DNA from: Octopus vulgaris
Lineage: Eukaryota
Direction of reading: 5' to 3'
DNA length: 64,000 nucleotides
Assembly: GCA_951406725.2 (NCBI GenBank)
Contig: OX597825.1
Coordinates: 57,102,001 to 57,166,000, forward strand
The notes beneath the pieces are model-generated. The model was not told where the DNA came from and made no database searches. It saw nothing but the letters and a program-made list of their open reading frames with translations. Positions within the stretch are counted from its first letter, which is position 1, and every line of letters starts with the position of its first letter. Positions 15,190-49,269 of the stretch are shown piece by piece. Made by a program: the position numbers and the translations under genes.

Positions 15190-15629
15190 CGTCTTGGTCA
15201 CTAGTCATTGCCCCTGTGAGGCCCAAAGTTCAAAAATGATGCTTCACCATCTCGTCTACCTCCACCACAGGTTCCCTCCACAGTTAGAGATCAGCACTTC
15301 TTTACACAGCTGTCCTCGTCCATACACATCACATAACCATACCAGTGCAGTCGTCTCTGTTGCACACCACATCTAATGCCTCTTATTCCCAACTTTTCTC
15401 TCAAGATGCTTACTCTCTGACAAACATGCATGCGGACATTGCACATTCAGCAAAGCATACTAGCTTCATTTCTTTCAAGTCTACGCGTGTCCTTGGTTGT
15501 CACAGCCCATGTTTCACTGCCATGTAGCATAGCTGTTCACACACAGGCATCATACAATCTGCTTTTCACTCTGAGAGAGAGGCCCTTTGTTGCCAGCAGA
15601 GGTAGGAGCTCTCTGAACTTTGCCCAGCC
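15190..15629 (-). mobile_element. RTE LINE 3' fragment (same family as 2297-4278)
   Basis: Reverse complement matches GWAKFRELLPLL...VKSRLYDACV*TAMLHGSETWAVT. Confidence 0.85.
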
Positions 15630-16168
15630 TTCTATTAAACATGGAGAAGAATCTGTGATGATCTGGGGAGCTATATCTTGGAAATCCACTGGCCCAATGG
15701 TTCCCCTTCATGGTAGAATTAATAGTCAAGACTATTTAAGCATTTTATCTGATCAAATTCATCCTATGGTTGCAGAACTGTTTCCGGAGGGAAACGTAAT
15801 CTTTCAGGATGATAATACTCTAATTCACACAGTTAAAGTTGTTACTGAATGGCATGAGGAACATTCTAGTGAAGTTGAACATCTCATCTGGCCACCACAG
15901 TTCCCAAATCTCAATATTATTGAACATTTATGGTGCATTTTAGAAAAACAAGTAAGGAATCAATATCCTCCACCATCATCACTACAAGAACTGGAGAATG
16001 TTTTAGCTGAAGAATGGACAAAAATTCCTTTGGAAACAATTCAAACTTTGTATGAGTCCATACCTCGTAGAATTCAAGCTGTAATTACTGCCAAAGTTGA
16101 TTCTACCCCTTATTAAAATAAATTTGTTTGAAATTTTAAGGTGTTTCCATTATTTTGTCCAACCCCTG
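15630..16168 (+). mobile_element. 5'-truncated Tc1-family transposon, catalytic half intact (DD36E spacing)
   Basis: KHGEESVMIWGAISW...FQDDN...WPPQFPNLNIIEHLW...YESIPRRIQAVI..., stop at 16116. The right TIR ends ...gtccaacccctg followed by TA. Confidence 0.88.
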
Positions 16169-29312: not shown

Positions 29313-30567
29313 TAGGGTACGATGGGTAAATTGTCGCCATTCTATATTTTTAATTTCGTGCATGTGCACTTTTTGTTTTTAATTTTGTCGACTACATAGT
29401 ATGGTAGGGTCAGTTGGGCACTGTCTGTGAGAAAATCAGCACCATGACGCAATTCACTCTGCCAGAAATTTGAAAACGACATGCTGTACTGCTTTGCATT
29501 CACACCAGAAGCGCCAATATGAACATTTCAGAGTGTTTGGGAATCAGCCTGAGGACAGTGCAGAGGATTTGGAAAGAGTTGGATGAGTCTAATAGTGACT
29601 ACAAAGGTATGGCAGCTCAGAAAACTCACTCTGATTGGTCTGATAAGAAAAGAACTCCTGAATTTGTTCATGAGATCTAGGCTATGATTGACAATGATCC
29701 CTTCAGGTCAATCAGGTCCATGGGAGTGTGAGTTTCTTACCAGACAGGTAGTGCATGAAGACATTCACTATTCCCCGTACAAGATGAGAAAGGGCCAATT
29801 TTTATCCCAAGCTATCAAGGACAAGAGAAGAGACCATGCTATGAAGCTTTTGAACAAACTCAAGCATCCCCTCCAACCAAACATGCTTTAGTTTCTGCCA
29901 AGATCAGATGGTGAACACAGAACAACCGCTGACTTGCCATGTTCCCAAAACATGTACCAAGAGTGATAAAAATCAAATATCCAGTCAACATCATGGTGTT
30001 TGGAGTGATCACTAATGATGGCGACATTATGCTTCCATTCATCTTCCCACACAGCCTCACACTCAATGTAGAGGCCTACATCAAGTGTCTGGAGTTAGTG
30101 CTGCCCTGGGTCAAGAGGGTGGCTGCTAGAAGACCCTATATCTGGCAACAGGACTCTGCACCATACTACACAAGGAGAACTCAGTCATGGCTGTCAGACA
30201 ATTTCTGTGACGACATCACCCCTAACATCTTGCCACCTAACTCCCCAGACTGCAACCTCTTTGATTATTATGCGTGGGGCACAGTTGAGCAAGAAACTAA
30301 CCAAACTCCTTGTAACACCAAAGATGAACTGAAGGCAAGGATTATGGCAGCATTCACCAACTTAGACAAGGAAACCAGAGTTACAGAAGGTTCCGAAGTC
30401 GTCCAGAGGCTATGGTTGAAGCCAATCATGATTTTATTAAATAAATTTACTCTTTAGTATTTCAAGATATTTTTATGTAATTTTGGTAAATATATCTCTT
30501 AAAATGAGATGTCAGTGTTATTTTCATTTCTGTGTAAATTAGGTGACAATTTATTCACTGCACTCTG
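29313..30567 (+). mobile_element. Decayed Tc1/mariner transposon, DD37D (maT)-like, second family
   Basis: TIRs tagggtacgatgggtaaattgtcgcc and ggtgacaatttattcactgcactctg with TA flanks. ORF 29939-30457 contains IMVFGVI, WQQDSAP and LPPNSPDCNLFDYY. Confidence 0.87.
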
Positions 30568-38012: not shown

Positions 38013-38344
38013 TTTTACTATTTCCTAATGAAACTGGACCAAGGAGAGAAGGTCTACATACCATAGTAAACACCAAATGCATAAAGTGGCAATGGCTCAT
38101 GAGCATAGCTAAGAGTTTTTGATATGCAACAATGAATGATGTTAGAACTGCTGAGCCACGCTGTGATGATGGTCAATGTCAACGACAACATATGATTATC
38201 ACTCTAATTTCAAGTTTATTTCAAACATTAGAATATGTTTCCCTGTGAAAATAGTTGTTTCTGTTATAAGCATAAAGCCTTTAATAACTATTTCAACTTT
38301 AGGTTCAAGGCTGGGAATTTTGAGAGAAGGGTGTTAGTTAACCA

Positions 38345-40065
38345 AATGTTCCATCTTCATCACCACTGACATTGGACTCTATATCCTCTATGCAATTTAC
38401 ACCAGCAATGCTACAACACCACCTAAAGAATAAACGCAATTATGCCTCTCCTGGTCTCGATGGTGTTACATACCTACTTCTCAAACGCAGTGGGTACTTT
38501 CTTCTAAGACAACTTTCTCTATTCTTCCAATTCTGTCTTGACAATGGTGTTACTCCAGAACAGTGGAAAACTGCCAGTGTCATCCCTCTGTTCAAAAAAG
38601 GCGACCGCACATCGCCTGTCAACTATCGCCCCGTCAGTCTTACTAGCTGCATCGCCAAACTGATGGAATCCTGTATCAGAGAAACCCTCTGGAACTTCTG
38701 GAAGTCTCACAGCCTCATCCAGCCGTCACAATTCGGATTTATTCCTAACTCCAGCTGCTGTAATCAACTCATCGAGTTTCTTGAGGACGTTACCCAAATC
38801 ACTGATCGCGGATCCTGGGTGGATGTTGTTTACCTGGACTTTGCTAAGACTTTTAACTCTGTGCCACACAAAAGACTTATGGTGAAGCTTTCTGCGTTGG
38901 GTGTAAGAGACGAACTCTATAACTGGTTAAAGTCTTTTATTTTCGGCCGAAAAGAGGTTGTCACAGTTCTAGGACAGCACTCTTCGCCCTATGAGATGAC
39001 ATCTGGTGTGCCGCAGGGATCTGTTCTTGGCCTCCTTTTATTTGTTGCATATGTTAATGACATAGATGCCAACTTAAAGAATGCCACAGTGCTGAAATAT
39101 GCAGATGACATCAAGCTGTACCTCGAAATAAAGAGGTCAAATCCTGTACACTATGGATCTCTATTGCAAGCAGACCTGGACACATTGCAGCAGTGGATCA
39201 TGGACTGGCAACTCAAGCTGGCTGTGGACAAATGTACCACCATGCATTTTGGGAGGAGAAACCCAGCGTCCACCTACTCCCTCCACAACACTAGTCTCAA
39301 AAAGTCTTCAAGTGAACGTGACCTGGGTGTTATTGTCGACAGTGATTTGCGTTGGACAAAACACATCGCTAAAATTGTCAAGAAGGCTGAGGGTGTCTTG
39401 GCATCACTCACCAAATCCTTTGTGAGCCGCTCTCCGGCTATCTATCTGTGGCTTTATATAGCTATGGTAAGACCTCACCTGGAATTTGCATCACCGGTCT
39501 GGAACCCCTATCTTGCCCAGGACATCAATCGTCTGGAAGCTGTTCAGCGACGTGCAACCAAAAGAATAACCCTCCATCAGGCATTTGCCATATCCTGAAC
39601 GCCTTACTTCCCTGGGCATGGACACATTGAAACTCCGACGTCTGGCAGCTGACTTGGCAGACACCCATAAAATTATCAACCATCGCACAAACAATAACTC
39701 TGAGCACCTCTTCAAACTCCACCCATCTAACACCCATGGACATATTTACAAAGTAAGAAAACAGCACAGCTCCCATGACTTCAGGAAACATTTTTTCACA
39801 CTGAGAGTTGCTGAAGCATGGAACAAACTGCCGGCATCGGTTGTTAGTTGTCGGAGCACTGCATCCTTCAAAACTTCCATGCTTCCTGAGATTCGCCAAC
39901 ACTACACTTGATTTTCTCCCCTCCATACACACACAAGCATGTATCTGACTCATACACTGTTCACTTTCCAGACATTTCTACATTACTGCATGTACTTTAT
40001 ATGCACTTTCTGACAAGTTGTGGTGCACCTGAGCACTGTATACAATAATTTCATTTTTTATTTTT
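38345..40065 (+). mobile_element. 5'-truncated CR1/L2-type LINE with near-intact RT
   Basis: ORF 38372-39598: PLFKKGD..NYRPVSLT, QFGF, YLDFAKTFNSVPH, SGVPQGSVLG, KYADD, ERDLGV, VRPHLEF...W.PY. A frameshift at ~39570 continues in 39585-39911. Ends in a TTA-rich tail. Confidence 0.93.
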
Positions 40066-43776: not shown

Positions 43777-44189
43777 AAGAAGCTTGCTTCCCAACCACAT
43801 GGTTCAAGGTACAGTCCCACTGCATGGCACCCTGGGAAAATGTCTTCTACTATAGTCTCGGTCAACGATAGCCTTGTGAGTGGATTTAGACAGAAACTGA
43901 AAGAAGCCCATTGTATGCTACTTGTAGCATGTAATCCAGTACAACCTGTCACATGGTTGGGTCATCAGCGACTAAACTGGCTACGCCACCAGGCTTGCTT
44001 GGTGAGGAGGGTGTTGTTGGACACTCTGTGGGATGAAAAATAAGACCTGTCAAAGGGCAGAGGAACTCCTGAACAGTTAATGACCATCCAACAAAATATC
44101 TGAACGGATCATATCATGCTGTATTTAACTGACAAAAGGTAGGTTTCTTACCATTGTCAGTATTTACTCACAAGGTATTGGAATCTTAT

Positions 44190-44589
44190 ATGTATATCAT
44201 TCTGCCTAAATAATGGATCTACAAATGCAATATCCCTGCATATCTCACATCTATTTTCATTCCTCCACTTCACTCTCTATTTCGTATCTTATCCAAATTA
44301 ACTATTGCTTAACCATTTTCTCACAGTGTCTCCGATGAAGGGATATATAAAATATCCTGGAAACAGCTGTAAGACCTATTTATAAATGTTCTAAATTCTT
44401 CACAGCCTTGGTTTTTTTATCTCATTCTGAAAAAAAGTTTTTTTATATATACACATGCTGATATATGACCTACGTTGGACTCCTTATTCACATAATCACT
44501 GAACCTGGAGCTTAACTATGGTCTGTCCATAGCACTTATTCAGCATTACTTGACACCTCTGGGTCTTATTGACACTATTACCTCTCATA

Positions 44590-44595: not shown

Positions 44596-44687
<92 letters not shown>

Positions 44688-44879
44688 CATTATATAATTA
44701 GGGCTTAGTAAAATAAATTACTTTGCCACATACTGGACTTAGTAGAAATAGCAGCCAAAAAAAAATTTTTTTAGCCATTTCTACTACTTAAAGAAAATTT
44801 CTCTCAGATAATGTTTACTCCAGACAGCTCACGAAGGTTTGGAGGTAAATACAGAAAAATATCACAAGTACATAGATCG

Positions 44880-44942
44880 TTTGAGTACGTCAACGTTTCA
44901 AGATTAGCCAAATAAAATCACCATTTCTTTTGTCAGCTCAAA
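44880..44942 (-). ncRNA. Type I hammerhead ribozyme copy 1 (G8>A, probably impaired)
   Basis: UUUGAG-CUGACAA-AAGA...UCUU-GAAA-CGUUGACG-UA-CUCAAA. Confidence 0.8.
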
Positions 44943-45440
44943 ATTTCTTAATTTGGATTTGGAAACACTAAAAAGAAGGAACTTTACCTCTTGGCGAACT
45001 TGTCGCTTCAAATGAACCAGCTCCAACTGCTAGTGCCAACAAATTCAAAATGCGCAGGCGTAAATCTCTGCAAATCTTTTCCACCCACGTGGTCTATCTA
45101 GCAAACGTTATATTTTAACCGTGAGAACCAAGGCAGTATGACAGAGAGAAATGAATTATAATATCAATAATTGAGGGTAAAATTAATTAATCAATTTCAC
45201 CAAGTGTTCAGTATGTAAAAGGACCATTTAAGGCAAATTCAAAATATTACATTATATAATTAGGGCTTAGTAAAATAAATTACTTTGCCACATACTGGAC
45301 TTAGTAGAAATAGCAGCCAAAAAAAATTTTTTTAGCCATTTCTACTACTTAAAGAAAATTTCTCTCAGATAATGTTTACTCCAGACAGCTCACGAAGGTT
45401 TGGAGGTAAATACAGAAAAATATCACAAGTACATAGATCG

Positions 45441-45503
45441 TTTGAGTACGTCAACGTTTCAAGATTAGCCAAATAAAATCAGCATTTCTTTCGTCAGCTC
45501 AAA
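45441..45503 (-). ncRNA. Type I hammerhead ribozyme copy 2 (intact consensus core)
   Basis: UUUGAG-CUGACGA-AAGA aau GCUGA uuuuau UUGGC uaa UCUU-GAAA-CGUUGACG-UA-CUCAAA. 6-bp helix I and GUA cleavage triplet; predicted cut between 45447 and 45446. Confidence 0.88.
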
Positions 45504-45711
45504 ATTTCTTAATTTGGATTTGGAAACACTAAAAAGAAGGAACTTTACCTCTTGGCGAACTTGTCGCTTCAAATGAACCAGCTCCAACTGCTAGTGCCAA
45601 CAAATTTTGAATTTGTTGGCACTAGCAGTTGGAGCTGGTTCATTTGAAGCGACAAGTTCGCCAAGAGGTAAAGTTCCTTCTTTTAGTGTTTCCAAATCCA
45701 AATTAAGAAAT

Positions 45712-45774
45712 TTTGAGCTGACAAAAGAAATGGTGATTTTATTTGGCTAATCTTGAAACGTTGACGTACTCAAA
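45712..45774 (+). ncRNA. Type I hammerhead ribozyme copy 3 in the inverted arm (G8>A)
   Basis: tttgag ctgacaa aaga...tctt gaaa cgttgacg ta ctcaaa, read directly on the + strand. Confidence 0.8.
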
Positions 45775-48383
45775 CGATCTATGTACTTGTGATATTTTTC
45801 TGTATTTACCTCCAAACCTTCGTGAGCTGTCTGGAGTAAACATTATCTGAGAGAAATTTTCTTTAAGTAGTAGAAATGGCTAAAAAAATTTTTTTTTGGC
45901 TGCTATTTCTACTAAGTCCAGTATGTGGCAAAGTAATTTATTTTACTAAGCCCTAATTATATAATGTAATATTTTGAATTTGCCTTAAATGGTCCTTTTA
46001 CATACTGAACACTTGGTGAAATTGATTAATTAATTTTACCCTCAATTGTTGATATATATATATATATATGTGTGTATATGCACTGATTTGGTCATGTGAT
46101 GCAGATGGATACTGATAACTCTATAAGGAAGTGCCAATCTCTCAAATTGGATGGAACATGTAGAAGTAGGAGGCCCAGGAAGACTTGAGATGAAGTACTG
46201 AAGATTGAACCTTTCAGATGAGATAATAAAGGAACAAGATACCTGGCATCTGGCCATACTCAAGAAGACCTCTACCCCACAGCAGAAGTGTTAAGACTGA
46301 TCCTTCTGGTGGTGTAGAGCACTCATGGCAGCATCACATAAAAGCGCCCATGCAGTACCACATAAAAGCACCCAGCACACACTGTAAAGTGGTTGGCATT
46401 AGGGAGGGCATCCAACAATAGAAACCATGCCAAATCAAACTTGAGTCTAGTGCAGCCCTCCAGTTTGCAGCTCTGGTCACACTGTACAACCCATGCCAGT
46501 ATGGACAACAGACATTAAATGATGATACATACATACATACATGCATGCATGCATACATACATACATTATTATGGCTGCCCCCTCGTTATCGAGTATGGCC
46601 ATTGCACGAAGCTTAACTGTTACTGGTGCTGTGATCGAATGTGACTTTTTAGCCCAGCTAAAGATCTACAATGTCTTGTACAAAATTGGCAACTAAAACC
46701 TTTACTGGTAATAGCCGGCTGTAGTTGTAACTGGGCTTCATGTACATACATACATACATACATACGTACGTACGTACATACATACATATGTGTGTGTGTT
46801 TATGTTAATGCCTATCTTATATGTTTATATTATTCAATGCTCTAGACACCTCTTTATATATTTACCTGATCCAGAGGTTTAGTAAAATGAGTGACTAAAT
46901 GTCTAGTGCTTTAGTAGAATCATTAGATTGTTGGTAAAAAAAGGCCTTGCATTATTTACTCTGTTTCTTTGCCTCCTGAGTTTGAATCCCATCAAAGCCA
47001 ACTTTGTTTTTCAAGCTCCCAGGGTTGAGAGAATAAAGTACTAGTAAATACTGAATTGATATCATCCCCTTACCTCCTTCCCCTTAAAATTCTAATTTTG
47101 TGTCTAAATTAGAAACTCTATTTCATGCTATCTTTCTATGGTTAGGGTCTGAATCTTGCCATGATCTAATTTGTTGCTTCCTATCAGCAAATTACACATC
47201 AAATGAGTGTTAGTCAAATCCATCCACTATATATATCCTTTCATTCTTTACATTAATGTAAGAGATCAGATGTAGTGTGCAAGTGCAAAGACTGTGCTGG
47301 TATGGTGATGTAATGCGTATGGACAAAGACAGATGCGTAAAGAAGTGCCAATCTCTAACTGTGGAGGGAACCTGTGAAAGATGTAGACCCAGAAAGATAC
47401 AGGACAAGGTAGTGAAATATGGTTTATAGATGTTGAGACTCATGGAGGCAATGACATGTGGCTGAAACTTTTGGTGATTTACAGTGCTTGAGAAGACATG
47501 TCATGCAAAGTGAAATTGTAGTGATCGCCAGTGCTGGTGATACATGAAAGGTACTTGTACTAATGACACCTTAAAGGCACCTGTGCTAGTAACAAGAAAA
47601 ATATACCCAGTACATCAAACCAAAACCGACTGGTGCTTGGTGCGGCTCCCCAGCTAACCACTTCCAATCAGTCTAACCCATATCAGCATGAAAATGAACG
47701 CTAAGTGATGATGATGATGATGATGATGATAATTCTCAGCATATCGTCACCCTCATCTCCACCCTCGTCATCATTTTCTTTATCATTACGATTCTCAGAA
47801 GCTGCTGGAACAATACATGGCAGCTTCTTTAGTTTCAAACACTAAACCTCCATATCATGTACCCTTTGATAAATGTCGACATTATATACCTTCAACTGAG
47901 CAGCAACACTAAATACCTTCAACACTGTCCACTCTCAGACCATAGCTAAATCTCAACATTATATACTCTCAATTAAACCTCAGAAACTGTGTAGCCTCTC
48001 GTTCTTGATATCAGTGTCAGACATCATTCTCACCGCATTGTCATTCTCATTTACACTTTTGTCATCTTCTCCCTTATCTCTATTATTCCCAGAAGTTGCT
48101 GGAACAATACATTGCAACTTCTATAGTTTCCAACACTAAAACTTCCACTAACATTAAATTCTCCAAATAATACCGGTCTTTCAGAGTTACGTCCCTTGCT
48201 ACTTCAAAGTAAAACCTTCAGCTGGTGTTCTTTCATATACCTTGTCTATACATATTCTTTAGAACCATCGATAATTCTTCACCTACCCTCAAAAAATTCC
48301 TTTCATAATCTAAGTGATTGAAATCTATAAATTCCCCGGAACAGATAAATGTCTTTATTACTGTTGTAAGTCTGTGATATATT

Positions 48384-48704
48384 ATGGGACGTTCCCGTCT
48401 CCTTGTCAAGAGCCGTTTTGTACGGCATGGTCTTCCGTTCATCACTTTAATCGTGGGTGGTTCCTTTTTACTTAAAGAATACGCAACTTTGAGGTATCAG
48501 TTTAGGAAATCGGAAATCACATCTGCTAAGGAAATCGCCGAAAAAACAGGAATTGAAGCTAAAGAGGAACCAGTAACACTTGAGAAAATCTACGACGAAA
48601 TGAAAAAGGAGGATCTTGATACTTGGGAGAACATTCGAGGGCCTCGACCTTGGGAAGATTCGAAAACAGTACAAGATCTACAAAGGGGAAAGGCCAGTTC
48701 TTGA
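48384..48704 (+). CDS. COX16: Cytochrome c oxidase assembly protein COX16 (single coding exon, 106 aa)
   Basis: N-terminal RHGLPFITLIVGGSFLLKEYATLRY (TM segment) and C-terminal DTWENIRGPRPWED are hallmark COX16 motifs. Intact ATG to TGA and typical length. Confidence 0.93.
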   Translation: MGRSRLLVKSRFVRHGLPFITLIVGGSFLLKEYATLRYQFRKSEITSAKEIAEKTGIEAKEEPVTLEKIYDEMKKEDLDTWENIRGPRPWEDSKTVQDLQRGKASS

Positions 48705-49269
48705 AGGTAAAATTTTGTTAATTGAAGAAGCGTGAGTTTTACCGCGTCATAGAAGTTTGTCAAATATATAAACAAATTTATTCTGTTTATATATCAATTT
48801 AAAAGCAAATTACTTATTTTAAACTGTAGTTATAGTGTCTAAAATAATTTGTGGGGTTTCTATTGTTTTAAATAATATACAAGGAAAAATAATAGTTAAT
48901 TTCTAACTTTGGTTAACATTATCCCTAACTTGATATAAAGCAGAAAATTTGTTGGTGGTGGGAGGCTTCTTGTTTAATTAAATTTAATTAGTATATTTAC
49001 CGGCTTTTAATGGAAGAAATGAAAGTTGAAGTCAGATTTGGTAAAAATGAATGAATGAGAAGCGGTAAGCTAGACTGTTATTAATTTCTAACAACTTCTT
49101 TATTAGTTGAATAAAACATAACCAATTATGTTTTGAAATATCGAAGTATGTCGTTTGGTAAATTTAAAACACAAGATTTATGTCCTTTATTAAATAACAC
49201 AGGAGACTTTAAAATAGAGATAAAACTAAACCTTTGTTTAATTTATGTTATTTTTAACTGTAACTGCTG

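Follow-up and report, generated by a model that had tools for sequence, protein, structure and literature searches.

The window considered here is the whole 64,000-nt stretch of Octopus vulgaris DNA that was analyzed (contig OX597825.1, positions 57,102,001 to 57,166,000), and its sequence has an N count of 0. It contains a C2H2 zinc-finger gene on the minus strand (7042-34464), for which ten coding exons were mapped and whose 1445-aa product, in the 400 residues that were compared, matches without a difference a protein named for this species. Transposase-like and LINE RT-like frames were recognized by manual reading at 15421-16116, 29933-30457, and 38342-39911, and a CpG-rich, exon-like stretch is present at 48380-48720 (near 48.4-48.7 kb). 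The feature under study is a 1374-bp insertion (44682-46055) in which copies of a 561-nt hammerhead repeat, a putative retrozyme, stand head to head. It is flanked on both sides by (TA)n, at 44638-44681 on the left and 46056-46069 on the right, and any target-site duplication is unreadable within these flanks.

Anatomy of the insertion

The insertion comprises 1.65 tandem copies of the 561-nt unit followed by an inverted, 5'-truncated copy. The long tract (44682-45606, minus strand, 925 nt) has its RNA-sense 3' end at 44682, which corresponds to a position of the unit, about 195-203, called site A in the following, and it is 5'-truncated at unit position 402. The inverted tract (45604-46055, plus strand) begins at unit position 396 and has its 3' end at a second position, about 286-290, called site B. 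The segment that runs from site A to site B, roughly 83 nt long, forms a "tail" (45973-46055, plus strand) that is found at one outer end only.

A preliminary description of this DNA had reported an ~895-bp near-perfect palindrome with a 3-nt spacer. The palindrome itself was borne out: its arms (45161-45606, which is the inner unit of the long tract, and 45610-46055, both given on the plus strand) are reverse complements of 446 bp that differ by 3 substitutions, at left-arm positions 45168, 45482, and 45492, and by 2 one-base indels, both of which lie in A/T runs. The full extent of the feature, however, is 1374 bp rather than 895 bp, given that a third partial copy is present at 44682-45045 in direct orientation, with 99% identity and a period of 561-562. 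Nor is there a true spacer, as the TTG is ordinary unit sequence. The right tract begins at 45604, within the last bases of the left tract, with which it has ATT in common; the inner joint (45604-45609) consists of this 3-nt microhomology plus a templated TTG that resembles a spacer. When the plus strand of the palindrome was folded as RNA, it formed a single hairpin of -753 kcal/mol, compared with -177 +/- 7 kcal/mol for 20 shuffled sequences.

The nearest copy of the insertion elsewhere is 0.6% away, a distance that points to a very young insertion. Immediately to its left (44162-44420, plus strand) lies an unrelated repeat with a type I hammerhead of its own (~44326-44376), which has a palindromic stem III and the core CCGAUGA and is probably inactive. 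This neighboring repeat has 4098 candidates in the genome, some of them with inverted partners.

A dispersed family with two fixed 3' ends

A DNA search of the genome with the 561-nt unit yielded 1638 candidates, 40 of which were scored. An exact 25-mer of the unit has 375 matches in the genome, compared with 0 for a control 25-mer, and a motif common to the unit and to a sister family (see below) has 1209. We took 118 loci (the 30 best matches; the 25-mer matches listed, which lie on contigs 1-3 and the start of contig 4; and 10 more loci from the DNA search). After 19 of these were dropped as duplicates, 99 were analyzed, two of which represent one locally duplicated insertion. Tracts of the unit reach 3.6 units (2038 nt) with no intervening sequence. 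No frame of at least 110 aa was found in 44682-46055, and no RT frame of the PLE (Penelope-type) kind is joined to the unit at the 99 loci or at 20 others screened. Judged from these sequences, the unit appears to be a non-coding, dispersed, multi-copy family of the non-LTR retrozyme kind, and the tandem arrangement of non-coding units, each with a predicted type I hammerhead, is likewise that of a retrozyme.

Among the 99 insertions, 51 are head-to-head, 48 have a single orientation, and none is tail-to-tail. RNA-sense 3' ends in the family fall at two sites, A (about unit position 190-212) and B (about 280-292), and run from there into (TA)n; the tail, i.e., the segment between the two sites, measures about 85-90 nt. 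Single-orientation copies use either site (28 end at A, 17 at B, and 3 elsewhere). The head-to-head copies with two canonical ends, in comparison, combine one of each in 41 of 42 cases, the exception being B+B, and the A+A combination does not occur (binomial p of about 1e-11). The 9 other head-to-head copies (of 51) have one non-canonical end. The longer arm can be either one, with the A arm being longer in 19 of the 41 A+B copies. Single-orientation A-end copies with a short inverted B-end stub at their 5' side were observed at L011, L061, L062, L071, and L087; given that several apparent single-orientation copies have such stubs, the share of head-to-head insertions is probably underestimated. 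The present locus displays the features of a PLE-type insertion, namely an inverted, 5'-truncated, head-to-head copy, two fixed 3' ends, and a (TA)n target.

Hammerheads of the unit

On the minus strand, the 561-nt unit carries one type I hammerhead, made up of stem I (UUUGAG/CUCAAA), CUGACGA, a long stem II, GAAA, a short stem III, and GUA. Its constrained fold has -9.7 kcal/mol, compared with a free minimum of -10.0 kcal/mol. Because Rfam at gathering score gave no match in the window, the assignment is based on manual structure. The best support for this predicted ribozyme comes from the sister family, in which the same core and pairing recur with different stems.

The insertion hosts three copies. 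The one in the left arm (45441-45503, minus strand) has the family-majority sequence with a 6-bp stem I and an intact core, and its predicted cut lies between 45447 and 45446. The right-arm hammerhead (45712-45774, plus strand) carries G8A (45723) together with a stem II change (45733) and is predicted to be inactive, and the distal copy (44880-44942, minus strand) has both of these changes as well. The CUGAnGA core is therefore kept in the left-arm hammerhead only, with the right-arm and distal copies both reading CUGACAA; the core numbering and the inactivation by G8 changes are established (PMC11167929). The preliminary description had placed the hammerheads of the two arms face to face; their ribozyme-sense 5' ends in fact lie at the center, so the two stand back to back and point apart.

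Across the family, 148 of 158 hammerhead copies passed the core test. The idea that the outermost hammerhead is regularly dead was rejected: 110 of 120 outermost copies passed, as did all 38 inner ones, and the failures differ from one another. We also considered ribozyme cleavage as the factor that sets the 5' ends of tracts and discarded it, as 3 of 154 ends fall at the cut (p=0.30), which is no enrichment. This absence of enrichment is what would be expected of an uncut template. Tracts at three loci (L027, L045, and L033) start at the predicted cut or at most 3 nt from it and may be considered candidate cleaved templates, in numbers that are not above chance.

Alleles and joints of the two arms

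Over 338 nt, the right arm shows 0 substitutions relative to the distal unit and 2 relative to the adjacent arm, from which it also differs at an A run (3 substitution sites in total). Both changes common to the right arm and the distal unit are derived (2 of about 160 copies), and a 26-mer that includes both has 2 matches in 2.8 Gb, each of them within this insertion. In the A-to-B segment, the two arms differ in that the allele of the family is found in the right arm and a rare one in the left. A terminal-unit allele as a mark of site B was considered and rejected: G is present in 157 of 162 cases and is thus the allele of the family, and the rare one is the A of the left arm.

A fold-back, whether biological or technical, copies the adjacent arm; because the right arm matches the distal unit instead, a simple fold-back is excluded. 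Most simply, one template unit would have given rise to both the distal copy and the right arm, the latter with a start 85-90 nt further 3'. The match may also have been produced by gene conversion after insertion, an option that stands because the assembly holds no source copy bearing the double change.

Similar relationships were sought at the other loci. Arms within one insertion differ by a median of 0.75%, compared with 2.5% between loci (for the 25 of 36 loci that overlap sufficiently). The within-insertion distance is no worse than the best between-locus distance in 16 of 25 loci, and a closer arm exists elsewhere for the other 9. Subfamily variants are common to both arms in 75 of 111 cases, as against 16.7 expected (1000 permutations gave a mean of 0.14 and a maximum of 0.29); the remaining 36 of 111 are discordant between arms, and 7 loci have discordant sites only. 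The comparison of outer with inner alleles gave 2 vs 0 at the present locus and 0 vs 0 in the 25 others, so that it is informative here alone.

At most inner joints, the tracts either overlap by a few bases or leave a small gap. At L185, L194, and L118, a tandem re-copying of 10-25 nt was seen at the inner joint, which suggests repeated priming during end joining.

A sister family and an autonomous PLE

The end rule recurs beyond the 561-nt family. A sister retrozyme family with a 598-nt unit aligns along the whole 561-nt unit and is about 70% identical to it at the 3' end; it has 2028 candidates in the genome (loci L122, L136, L119-L138, and L187-L198). Its hammerhead keeps the core, with stems that differ (stem I is CCUAUG/CAUAGG). 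Manual reading of 20 loci of older variants and of the sister family revealed 11 distinct head-to-head copies with two canonical ends, all of them A+B, in a sample that is biased against A+A, the loci having been picked by a motif that lies between A and B.

The genome also contains an autonomous element with a 784-aa frame, in which RVT_1 (E 3.5e-8) and GIY-YIG (E 4e-4, just below the Pfam cut-off) were recognized. The element has a 4433-bp period, and a protein search gave 30,817 candidates, 99 of which were scored. It is inserted in (TA)n targets, its two 3' ends lie 34 nt apart, and its inverted repeats span 2.2-3.1 kb. All 5 head-to-head copies in which both ends were readable have one of each kind; in 4 more, only one end was readable. 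This PLE is itself very young, with many open 784-aa frames (L169-L178, e.g., G000:C9:10668500-10688000 and C23:4102500-4112400). Some 55-90 nt upstream of both its 3' ends lies a minimal motif that resembles a hammerhead, with a U3/A8 core.

Since this one PLE family shows no DNA similarity to the 561-nt unit, it demonstrates the class of mechanism and not the partner of the unit. No autonomous partner was found in the flanks of the 48 single copies, in the young PLE family, or at the 20 variant loci, and tblastn of the PLE protein against the window gave no match. PLE fragments near 7 loci were considered as a partner and set aside as neighbors in shared targets.

Proposed mechanism

We propose that the palindrome is the center of one head-to-head retrozyme insertion, made by a PLE-type enzyme acting in trans through two target-primed reverse transcriptions, and we regard this account as likely. 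From the anatomy, the family, the two-end rule, and the allele pattern, all of which can be read directly, we infer the following enzyme steps. Uncut multimeric RNA would be bound by a PLE RT/GIY-YIG protein, both (TA)n strands would be cut, and cDNA would be primed from one DNA end at RNA site A and from the second DNA end at site B, which lies about 85-90 nt farther 3'. The A- and B-primed cDNAs would derive from the same RNA or from RNAs of one source. They would stop at unrelated points and be joined 5'-to-5' (in the RNA sense) via a few common bases, and the second strands would then be filled in. At the present locus, the cDNAs would have been 925 and about 450 nt long, with stops at unit positions 402 and 396. 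Because these are nearly the same position, separated by one period, what is usually a spaced inverted repeat would here have become a near-perfect palindrome.

A narrower form of this proposal is coupled twin priming, in which a single uncut RNA would serve one enzyme complex for both target strands, with one strand using site A and the other site B; we give it roughly an even chance. If true, the presence of the same two private changes in both cDNAs would count as direct evidence, from the genome, against self-priming as published, and the locus would also provide evidence for the movement of animal retrozymes by target-primed insertion of the PLE type, which would seed the octopus genome with long inverted repeats.

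Alternative explanations

Self-priming has been proposed for inverted PLE ends in PMC3846280, which also notes palindromes at inverted junctions. Applied to our locus, a nucleic acid end would have folded at a short palindrome and copied itself, and the match between the right arm and the distal unit would be due to later gene conversion. The joint is symmetric here, at AATT, and symmetric joints (offset of at most 8 nt) were found in 4 of 48 cases compared with about 1.5 expected (p=0.057); in addition, the absence of any other genomic source for the double change would be compatible with self-priming followed by conversion. The other 44 joints, however, are asymmetric with offsets of 10-279 nt, the right arm differs from the arm next to it at 3 sites and the A run while matching the distal unit, and self-priming alone leaves unexplained why 41 of 42 copies have A+B ends. 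We therefore consider this explanation unlikely.

Less probable still than self-priming is rolling reverse transcription of a monomeric circular retrozyme RNA, which would yield the tandem, with the inversion arising by a later DNA rearrangement. In its favor, animal retrozymes are expressed as circles, as stated in the relevant part of PMC7229834, tracts extend to 3.6 units, and the core test was passed by 148 of 158 hammerheads. Yet successive units of this very young tract differ, one being intact and the other G8A, so that a single circle would need RT errors, and the inversions are invariably head-to-head with A+B ends, unlike the products of random rearrangement.

The palindrome might also be viewed in terms of its transcript, whatever its origin. 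The preliminary description held that read-through RNA would fold into a long duplex that buries the intact ribozyme, making it a likely substrate of ADAR or Dicer that might silence the family, and it also took the site to be prone to cruciforms. In silico, such RNA would form a duplex of about 445 bp, and the burial of the intact hammerhead was reproduced for minus-strand RNA, but plus-strand RNA has only the G8A hammerhead in sense. Contigs of one putative RNA run, which may be DNA, tile part of the unit with 90-97% identity at the level of the family, and small RNAs against PLEs are reported in a rotifer in the corresponding part of PMC3846280. Against a silencing role, no locus-specific transcript was seen among the public-run contigs, which are family-level fragments. 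The nearest gene seen, that of the zinc-finger protein, has its start about 10 kb from the insertion and is transcribed in the direction leading away from it; its start codon (34464, minus strand) lies beside a CpG-rich stretch, and the gene may have a far 5' untranslated exon toward the insertion. Inverted arms measure at least 200 bp in 32 and at least 400 bp in 16 of the 51 head-to-head copies (rough figures where the alignment crosses the center); with long arms so common in the family, this locus is not a privileged source of dsRNA. Moreover, the insertion is very young, so there is no time depth that would argue for selection. A silencing function thus seems very improbable to us, and, given an origin by insertion, no hairpin function is needed to explain the palindrome, which probably arose as a side product of Penelope-type transposition rather than as a hairpin built for silencing. 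As a side effect, such insertions add long inverted repeats in large number to a genome whose RNA is known to be heavily edited; this is a property of the family and not of this locus.

Finally, an assembly or read artefact in the form of a fold-back chimera is hardly credible: no public-run contig was seen to span the joint, no strand-change joint was present among the 15 of 67 joints listed, and the best public run contains 0.47 of the locus words, but the public-run contigs over 45604-46500 are family-level fragments that carry no weight on the joint, on expression, or on other animals. A fold-back copies adjacent sequence, yet there are 3 sites of difference between the arms, and it is the distal unit that the right arm matches. 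In addition, both outer ends coincide with canonical sites of the family, one with each, and the same layout is found at 50 other loci.

Comparison with known systems

In L1 twin priming, both target strands prime cDNA, which results in a 5' inversion joined through microhomology; the internal site used by the second primer varies, and there is no overlap between the two pieces. In the octopus family, by comparison, both starts are fixed and both cDNAs would span the same sequence, and it is this coverage of the same sequence that would give rise to inverted repeats.

PLEs are known to have an inverted 5'-truncated copy, a one-sided 30-40-bp tail, and a (TA)n bias, and the relevant section of PMC8557442 calls the formation of this structure undefined. 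As in endonuclease-bearing PLEs, in the accounts of insertion structure given in PMC8557442 and PMC3846280, the insertion studied here combines a partial tandem with a head-to-head inverted copy and a one-sided outer extension, and it resembles PLEs as described there in its microsatellite targets, in the microhomology at the inner joint, and in having a hammerhead upstream of the 3' ends. Unlike the PLEs of those accounts, its unit is non-coding and directly self-repeating, and its tail is about 85-90 nt and not 30-40. Compared with the same descriptions, moreover, the tail rule has here been counted (41 of 42) and tied to alleles. Within the non-subscription literature searched, Penelope, octopus, and hammerhead were found together in PMC8557442 alone.

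Animal retrozymes have been defined and tied to PLEs in PMC7229834, PMC4209133, and bioRxiv 10.64898/2026.07.22.740005, in the sections on these subjects. The octopus family resembles the animal non-LTR retrozymes portrayed in PMC7229834 and the bioRxiv report (in the portions used here) in having tandem, low-GC, non-coding units with one type I hammerhead each, in forming dimers to short multimers at hundreds of dispersed loci, and in a unit length that is within the reported 51-972 bp. Term searches of these two sources returned no inverted copies, tails, or octopus family for retrozymes. Their pertinent sections favor circular intermediates or local amplification, whereas the ends observed in the octopus sequences would point to target-primed insertion of uncut multimers. 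Neither this family nor the coupled twin-priming model was found in the literature searched, which consisted of sources other than subscription papers and bioRxiv supplements.

The closest experimental parallel comes from the Poseidon PLE of Anolis, for which cutting of both strands, two RT start sites, and acceptance of uncut RNA were observed in vitro (PMC11167929). The similarities to the present family extend to AT-rich targets, to both strands being cut and extended, to two internal RT starts downstream of the hammerhead, and to cleavage being dispensable. The two differ in that no inverted product or coupling of strand and site is described for Poseidon, whose start sites are equal between strands; this lack of strand preference is a point against the mechanism proposed here.

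The architecture of the insertion is thus known, and the points of interest are the strict reciprocity of the ends and the allele test. Although the palindrome is ordinary for its class, it offers a test of how PLEs make inverted ends and one-sided tails, in that a tandem non-coding passenger has marked units, from whose alleles the origin of each arm can be read. Our data support, in a mollusc, the proposal that retrozymes are passengers of PLEs. The rule that one end of each kind is used, found in 41 of 42 copies and repeated in the sister family and the autonomous element, provides a sharp prediction for the existing in vitro system.
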